64,000 nt of DNA from Escherichia coli (lineage in GTDB: Bacteria > Pseudomonadota > Gammaproteobacteria > Enterobacterales > Enterobacteriaceae), in assembly GCF_044324785.1 (NCBI RefSeq), contig NZ_CP172127.1. The stretch is one strand, 5' to 3'. This document shows positions 18,302 to 18,374 of the stretch, piece after piece (positions within the stretch are counted from its first letter, which is position 1; each line of letters begins with the position of its first letter). The translations under genes and the position numbers were made by a program. The notes under the pieces were generated by a model that saw only the letters and a program-made list of their open reading frames with translations, searched no databases and had not been told where the DNA came from.

Positions 18302-18374
18302 TGCCGGATGTGATGACGCATCCGGCAACTGCGCCCTGATGCCTGATGCGACACTAAACGCGTCTTATCAGGCC
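18302..18374. repeat. REP/BIME-like extragenic palindromes
   Basis: TGCCGGATG...CATCCGGCA palindrome and GCCTGATGCG...CGTCTTATCAGGC REP-type unit between convergent cbpM and torD. Confidence 0.6.

Follow-up and report, generated by a model that had tools for sequence, protein, structure and literature searches.

Do the palindromes that follow cbpM and those that lie between appX and appA in this Escherichia coli genome belong to the REP family of repeats, and what do they do for the transcripts that run into them? We examined this question in the window, i.e., the whole stretch of 64,000 nucleotides analysed here. We consider it likely that these elements are REP/BIME-family units, together with the stump left by a deletion, and that their hairpins shield the neighbouring mRNAs from 3' decay. 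The cbpM-torD (281 nt) and appA-appB (301 nt) stretches of the window are 100% identical to strain N3 (NZ_CP031609.1), and gene coordinates were taken from the annotation of the N3 record, which corresponds one-to-one to the window; the orientation is opposite to that of K-12. At the first site, cbpA (17068-17988) and cbpM (17988-18293, stop codon TGA at 18291..18293) are encoded on the + strand and are followed on the - strand by torD (18386-18985, stop codon TAA at 18386..18388) and by torA and torC (18982-22700). At the second site, all genes lie on the - strand: appA (29809-31119, annotated start codon at 31117..31119), cbdX (= appX, 31199-31291, stop codon TAA at 31199..31201), appB (31304-32440) and, next after appB, appC. 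The first-pass annotation had assigned REP-type palindromes to two convergent gene junctions, a description that is right for cbpM(+) and torD(-), a convergent pair with a spacer of 92 bp, but not for appX and appA, which are co-directional on the - strand with a spacer of 79 bp. All three palindromic units at these sites (18301-18328, 18340-18377 and 31157-31193) are intergenic.

Inverted repeats were found at both sites. The first has arms of 10 nt (18301-18310/18319-18328, 100% complementary), the second has arms of 12 nt (18341-18352/18362-18373, 83% complementary), and the third has arms of 14 nt (31158-31171/31176-31189, 86% complementary). The palindromes recognized in the first pass therefore exist, although their coordinates were slightly off. 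The range given after cbpM, 18302..18374, is indeed palindromic but consists of two separate hairpins and an 11-nt linker rather than one element; the range given for the app site, 31159..31189, does hold a REP, but the full unit extends over 31157-31193 with a flanking T and a TTAC tail.

The unit nearest to cbpM (18301..18328, no strand assigned) is a chimeric remnant hairpin, TTGCCGGATG-tgatgacg-CATCCGGCAA, which forms a perfect 10-bp palindrome with an 8-nt spacer as DNA and a 12-bp stem with a 4-nt loop as RNA (-20.6 kcal/mol). It is separated from the next unit by the tail-to-tail linker CTGCGCCCTGA (18329..18339, likewise without strand), whose counterpart in the alignment is the linker between y and z2 of the K-12 and U13A BIMEs. 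The next unit is a z2-type REP on the - strand (18340..18377), an imperfect palindrome of 38 nt that reads TGCCTGATGCGAC-actaaacgc-GTCTTATCAGGCCAAC on the + strand (iREP orientation) and GTTG-GCCTGATAAG... on the - strand, i.e., in torD sense (REP orientation). The app site carries a single z2-like REP on the - strand (31157..31193), an imperfect palindrome of 37 nt with the sequence TGCCTGATGCGACGC-taat-GCGCCTCATCAGGCTTAC, which on the app mRNA strand reads GTAA-GCCTGATGAGGCGC-ATTA-GCGTCGCATCAGGCA (REP orientation) and folds there into an RNA hairpin of -23.8 kcal/mol. The RNA folds of the three units have energies between -15.9 and -23.8 kcal/mol and z-scores from -3.6 to -5.9. When a 37-nt degenerate REP pattern was used, 18341-18377 matched with 2 mismatches (0.00 matches expected from 100 shuffles), and a loose two-arm regular expression applied to all 64 kb returned these three units only (analytic chance expectation ~0.01). 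Moreover, a blastn-short census of the window with y, z1 and z2 queries recovered the three units and one further hairpin at 59791-59817, the remainder being short chance words.

Typical REPs are imperfect palindromes of 30-40 nt with a GTAG head; they are classified into y, z1 and z2 types and organized in BIME-1 and BIME-2, with a tandem number that varies between strains (PMC3333891). We compared the three units with the y, z1 and z2 consensus sequences taken from PMC11208160. The best consensus was z2 both for 18340-18377 (33/37 identities) and for 31157-31193 (31/37 identities, hence z2-like), and the lengths of these units, 38 and 37 nt, are within the 30-40 nt of REPs. The hairpin at 18301-18328, with 28 nt and a perfect stem, is outside this length and fits no REP consensus, the best being y with 24/35 identities and several gaps needed. 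Copy-number queries against 5426 complete E. coli genomes separated the units in the same manner. The REP units 18340-18377 and 31157-31193 were matched at 29 to at least 40 places per genome (at least 40 in more than 5200 records), and the hairpin 18301-18328 was matched at 1-3 places, with a median of two, probably one palindromic site counted once on each strand. This hairpin is locus-specific, not dispersed.

The heads of the two REPs are altered. GTTG is present at 18374-18377 (-) and GTAA at 31190-31193 (-), each agreeing with GTAG in 3 of 4 bases, and the hairpin 18301-18328 is devoid of any GTAG/CTAC head. Intact heads were found at the orthologous positions elsewhere, namely CTAC in U13A and E. 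whittamii and GTAG at the app site of K-12. Since orthologues retain GTAG/CTAC, we read the altered heads as decay of true REPs and not as a sign of non-membership. With regard to the stems, unit 18340-18377 has adjacent G.T / C.T mismatches (columns 9/27 and 10/26), in the app unit two positions that are not adjacent (columns 21/36 and 23/34) are non-Watson-Crick, and the hairpin 18301-18328 has no mismatch at all. It is known that stem mismatches are needed for binding by the REP transposase and that the GTAG mutations tested abolish both its binding and its cleavage (PMC3333891). Given their mutated heads, both REPs of the window are probably inert as substrates of mobile elements or of the REP transposase. 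In summary of family membership, the two units share with z2-type REPs an imperfect palindrome of 37-38 nt with an internal G.T / C.T mismatch, a location outside genes and a copy number in the tens or above per genome, and differ from them by their GTTG and GTAA heads. Thus, the assignment to the REP family is upheld for these two z2, multi-copy units and fails for the first unit after cbpM; the remark that they are ordinary E. coli repeats fits known REP/BIME biology and applies to two of the three units. When the whole window was scanned against Rfam at gathering thresholds, neither REP site was matched, which is uninformative because REPs are not an Rfam family. The RefSeq annotations of K-12 and N3 list no repeat features at these sites. 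A gene for a REP-associated tyrosine transposase (tnpA-REP / RAYT) is absent from the window.

How did a perfect, locus-specific hairpin come to lie next to a REP? The cbpM-torD spacer comprises 151 bp with three REPs in K-12 and 254 bp with five REPs in U13A, arranged as z2-y-z2-y-z2, i.e., a BIME-2 array. Alignment of the window spacer to those of K-12 and U13A showed that exactly 59 bp are missing, with CGCATC flanking the gap. Through this loss, the first REP lacks its right half and the inverted y REP its left half, and the head-to-head linker that joined them is gone as well; the deletion junction is at the CGCATC that is present in both REPs. The hairpin 18301-18328 consists of the left arm of the first REP joined to the right arm of its inverted y partner. 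The first two REPs of K-12 form one hairpin of ~85 nt whose base is made up of the very arms that survive in the window. Furthermore, a pattern scan detected the intact REP pair, and no chimera, in 4 other Escherichia genomes outside the E. coli cluster (E. whittamii, E69 and two further species), and the first REP of E69 shares the GATGTGATGA variant with the left arm of the window. On the basis of the alignment gap, the intact pair in other Escherichia and the K-12 fold, the unit at 18301-18328 is a derived chimeric stump that arose when 59 bp between CGCATC direct repeats were deleted. The label "REP-like" that it had been given cannot be kept, as it is a deletion stump with no consensus fit and 1-3 places per genome. 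Replication slippage across the palindrome would be the mechanism we infer. A deletion made by the transposase is not favoured, as the junction is at the CGCATC direct repeat and not at the C^T cleavage sites (PMC3333891). Compared with a REPIN-like long hairpin, the window hairpin is the exact base of the ~85 nt structure of K-12; it differs in having lost the distal 59 bp, in which both GTAG heads and the head-to-head linker were located, and in being locus-specific, not dispersed.

Two other sequences deserve mention here. Escherichia sp. MOD1-EC7003 has the first REP pair intact and is devoid of the z2 REP beside torD, its linker running into the torD stop region; this loss is the reverse of the one in the window. 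In addition, the 449-bp contig NZ_JAHZMP010000241.1, assigned to Terrisporobacter mayombei (0.87x coverage), carries the E. coli cbpM end followed by REPs and most likely represents E. coli DNA contaminating that assembly.

Examination of the same spacer in other genomes showed that it is a copy-number-polymorphic site of the BIME-2 type, with 2, 3 or 5 units or disruption by an insertion sequence. The 2-unit allele of the window, recognized by its 33-nt hairpin at ≥99% identity, is present in 1981 records (~37% of complete E. coli genomes), the 3-unit allele of the K-12 type was identified by a junction match in 1766 genomes, and the 5-unit allele of the U13A type was observed in 5/30 evenly spaced rows. 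The window spacer is the shortest common allele of this BIME-2-type cluster, with one intact z2 REP and the stump. The alternation of y and z2 units that defines BIME-2 is absent from the window, which has z2 and the chimeric stump and no y, and is present in the corresponding spacer of U13A, K-12 and E. whittamii, the last of which also has z2-y-z2-y-z2. The locus therefore resembles BIME-2 in that its unit number varies between strains, and the window allele differs in being decayed, having neither a y REP nor a complete REP/iREP pair. IS1397 and IS621 are known to insert specifically into REPs (PMC1525189, PMC11208160), and the natural target of IS621 is ATCAGGCCTAC (PMC11208160). In Nord122 (L007 2594-4112), IS1397 is inserted in the loop of the orthologous z2 REP with a TAAA duplication on both sides, and in N96 (L008 2594-4026), IS621 is inserted at GGCC^TAC of the first REP in the same spacer. 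The presence of REP-specific insertion sequences at the orthologous cbpM-torD site provides independent support for its REP identity.

We then asked what these hairpins could do to transcripts. An intrinsic terminator scan detected no terminator-like site in 18294-18385 or 31120-31198, and a promoter scan detected no promoter in either spacer. On both strands the hairpins lack a following U-tract, their tails being CUGCGCC, CAACAAA, AACACAC and AUCAAUA. Because of the missing U-tracts and the empty scans of both spacers, the hairpins are not regarded as intrinsic terminators. Published Term-seq data of K-12 list a 3' end in torCAD sense at 1062547(+), found in two out of three condition sheets (PMC7815308, supplementary file 1). 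This end falls between GGCAAACACA and CATCACGGAT, 5 nt past the foot of the last hairpin (GGCAA). As the window has the same hairpin foot and 3' flank as K-12, the steady-state 3' end of torCAD-sense RNA is predicted by homology at 18296 on the - strand (18296..18296). The same study reports a Rho-termination region in cbpAM sense that peaks at 1062039 (Rho score 6.49, p = 2e-9), where coverage drops from 64 to 11 reads in the absence of bicyclomycin and goes from 112 to 125 reads in its presence (PMC7815308, supplementary file 2). This peak is ~0.5 kb past the cbpM stop, inside torD in antisense. The K-12 Term-seq data list no 3' end in cbpAM sense at the REPs and none for the app operon under those growth conditions (PMC7815308). 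All these 3' end data refer to K-12 with its 3-REP allele and not to the 2-unit allele of the window strain. Downstream of the hairpins, C exceeds G on both strands (146/125 and 158/126), a mild excess that is compatible with Rho loading and not diagnostic of it.

These features are reminiscent of the protective 3' stem-loops described by Peters et al. and by Dar and Sorek in 2018. According to Dar and Sorek, termination by Rho occurs diffusely downstream, the RNA is then shortened by PNPase and RNase II, and its end is set by a stable stem-loop without U-tract; in their data, 24% of such protective stem-loops are annotated REPs (PMC6061677). The elements studied here share with them a stable hairpin that lacks a U-tract, a downstream C excess and, in K-12, an end a few nt past the stem with Rho termination some hundred nt further on; the difference is that no cbpAM-sense end has been called at this locus. 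By analogy, the transcribed units would fold as stable hairpins which, having no U-tract, would not terminate transcription by themselves; Rho would end transcription further downstream, and PNPase and RNase II would trim the RNA to the hairpin foot, leaving a protected 3' end. Between cbpM and torD, which are convergent, the hairpins could serve both operons, and between appX and appA the hairpin could protect the appCBX segment relative to appA. A role as 3' stabiliser would thus be the most plausible function of the hairpins in this strain. For cbpAM and appCBX, this role is extrapolated, since K-12 has no cbpAM-sense end at the REPs and no app ends. The suggestion that the repeats stabilise the cbpAM mRNA is therefore retained as the most plausible idea, with the correction that the K-12 end is in torCAD sense and that cbpAM-sense termination is Rho-dependent and further downstream.

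The app REP requires separate consideration. It is intercistronic within appC-appB-appX-appA and upstream of appA, whose annotated start is 38 nt downstream of the REP foot, and it is kept at the same position in 5398 of the 5426 genomes. Because it is upstream of appA, it cannot cap a transcript that contains appA and could protect the appCBX part only; stabilisation of the whole appCB-appX-appA mRNA, as proposed before, is not tenable. For appA, a further transcriptional input of its own has been reported. On induction of YdeO, appC and appB show log10 values of 1.66-1.85 and appA shows 1.33-1.34, i.e., ~2-3 fold less (PMC4222967). This weaker response of appA is weakly consistent with protection of the upstream segment by the app REP. 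A similar arrangement is the malE-malF intercistronic REP, which Newbury et al. reportedly described as a stabiliser in 1987. The app REP shares with it the position between cistrons directly after the upstream stop codon and a downstream gene that responds less than the upstream genes to induction.

Some additional observations were made around appA. In-frame ATG codons are present at 31140-31138 and 31149-31147, between the app REP and the annotated appA start at 31119, and the longest appA ORF has 446 aa compared with the annotated 436 aa. This 436-aa appA overlaps the 3' end of the convergent cspH by 13 nt (29809-29821), and a direct appA-cspH junction was found in 1669/5426 complete E. 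coli genomes. We take the K-12 appA to have 432 aa ending in IPACSL, and appA and cspH to be separated in K-12 by the gfc-etp-etk capsule cluster and IS1, which are absent here.

The stabiliser role has to be weighed against other readings of the same hairpins, one of which concerns translation. The foot of the remnant hairpin is 7-9 nt after the cbpM stop codon, the stem of the z2 REP is 12 nt after the torD stop codon in torD sense (its GTTG head being 8 nt from it), and the stem of the app REP is 9 nt after the appX stop codon, so that the spacing is within 15 nt at cbpM, torD and appX alike. Lower translation of the upstream gene has been reported for REPs less than 16 nt away from a stop codon (Liang, Rudd and Deutscher 2015, as summarised in PMC12306157), and hairpins 7-12 nt past stop codons may also slow terminating ribosomes. 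It is possible, if somewhat unlikely, that the hairpins act mainly on translation by stalling terminating ribosomes and lowering cbpM, torD and appX output. The three spacings and the effect reported for other REPs (PMC12306157) speak for this; the first hairpin is not a REP, which speaks against it, though the mechanism depends on structure and not on family. The RepRanger and Ton-Hoang supplements contain nothing on these genes. An action on translation and a stabiliser role are not mutually exclusive. Two further roles were considered. A bidirectional intrinsic (Rho-independent) terminator would agree with the strong G+C-rich hairpins right after both stop codons and with the K-12 3' end a few nt past a hairpin; we nevertheless regard it as extremely improbable for the cbpM-torD hairpins, given that no U-tract is present on either strand, that the scan of 18294-18385 was empty, and that K-12 terminates cbpAM-sense transcription in a bicyclomycin-sensitive manner with a peak ~0.5 kb downstream. 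BIME-2 elements are enriched for gyrase cleavage in vivo, mostly at y-type REPs (PMC6379681), and a site between convergent operons is where supercoiling could be relieved by gyrase binding and cleavage. Such a gyrase site is very unlikely here, as the y REP of the window has been destroyed by the deletion, leaving the z2 unit alone, the torD-cbpM site is absent from those supplements of PMC6379681 that were searched, and the app site is a lone REP and not a BIME.

A different view is that these units have no selected function at all, being fossils of a selfish repeat that was spread by the REP transposase and is now immobile, with 3' ends that coincide with them incidentally. The GTTG and GTAA heads are in line with this, as the GTAG mutations tested abolish transposase binding and cleavage, and so are the polymorphic unit number (2, 3, 5) and the tolerated IS insertions; free variation of unit number at cbpM-torD argues for weak constraint. 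Stem conservation was examined by alignment. In the z2 REP beside torD, 88% of cells are paired across 8 strains or species, and in the app REP 95% of cells are paired across 8 E. coli strains, with 0 double changes in either. No compensatory changes were found in the REP stems, the changes being one-sided (to G.U) or disruptive at a divergence too low for power; stem changes of this kind, unaccompanied by compensatory pairs, are what a fossil would accumulate. As to the app REP itself, 5/33 columns of REP plus head vary compared with 2/49 flanking columns in the 8 E. coli strains, counts that are too small to test and that hint at faster evolution than in its surroundings. Against this view, the app REP occupies the same place in 5398/5426 genomes, the base of the long hairpin survived the deletion, including the exact foot of the K-12 3' end, and REP hairpins are documented as exonuclease barriers (PMC6061677). 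We consider the absence of any selected function unlikely and prefer the stabiliser role.

The 59-bp deletion allele, in which an imperfect hairpin of ~85 nt has become a perfect 12-bp hairpin, might be a natural cis-regulatory variant that alters CbpM/CbpA or TorD output, a proposal that we consider quite unlikely. Such a variant would act via 3' end stability or via ribosome stalling at the cbpM stop codon; if the proposal is true, copy-number alleles of REP clusters would be expression polymorphisms and not neutral junk. The allele series (2, 3 and 5 units, and IS-disrupted) is a tidy example of the decay of a palindromic repeat cluster and could serve as a natural test set that relates REP number to the expression of flanking genes. 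REP/BIME elements, their copy-number polymorphism, their targeting by IS1397 and IS621, and their role as exonuclease barriers that set the 3' ends of Rho-terminated transcripts are all already established. The finding thus matters little in itself, and its useful outcome is a set of corrections to the first-pass annotation: one of the "REPs" is a deletion stump, one site of two is convergent, and the 3' end evidence concerns torCAD and not cbpAM.

Several other features of the window were also recorded. The hairpin at 59791-59817, between uup and pqiA, has the sequence TGCCTGAT-taacccagttc-ATCAGGCA, with REP-like outer arms and neither a REP interior nor a head. Its length is invariant, and a surrounding 231-nt query is ≥99% identical in 4697/5425 genomes; its invariant length and this identity show it to be a fixed locus-specific hairpin and not a polymorphic REP. 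For uup, no Term-seq end is listed in the K-12 data (PMC7815308). The Rfam matches in the window are two, namely a cspA-type thermoregulator at 29057-29479 (-), which covers the leader and coding region of cspG (157 bits), and a tRNA at 40024-40108 (+), annotated as tRNA-Ser. In addition, three genes for small hypothetical proteins are located on the - strand at 12617-13810, between yccJ and agp, two genes that are presumably adjacent in K-12.
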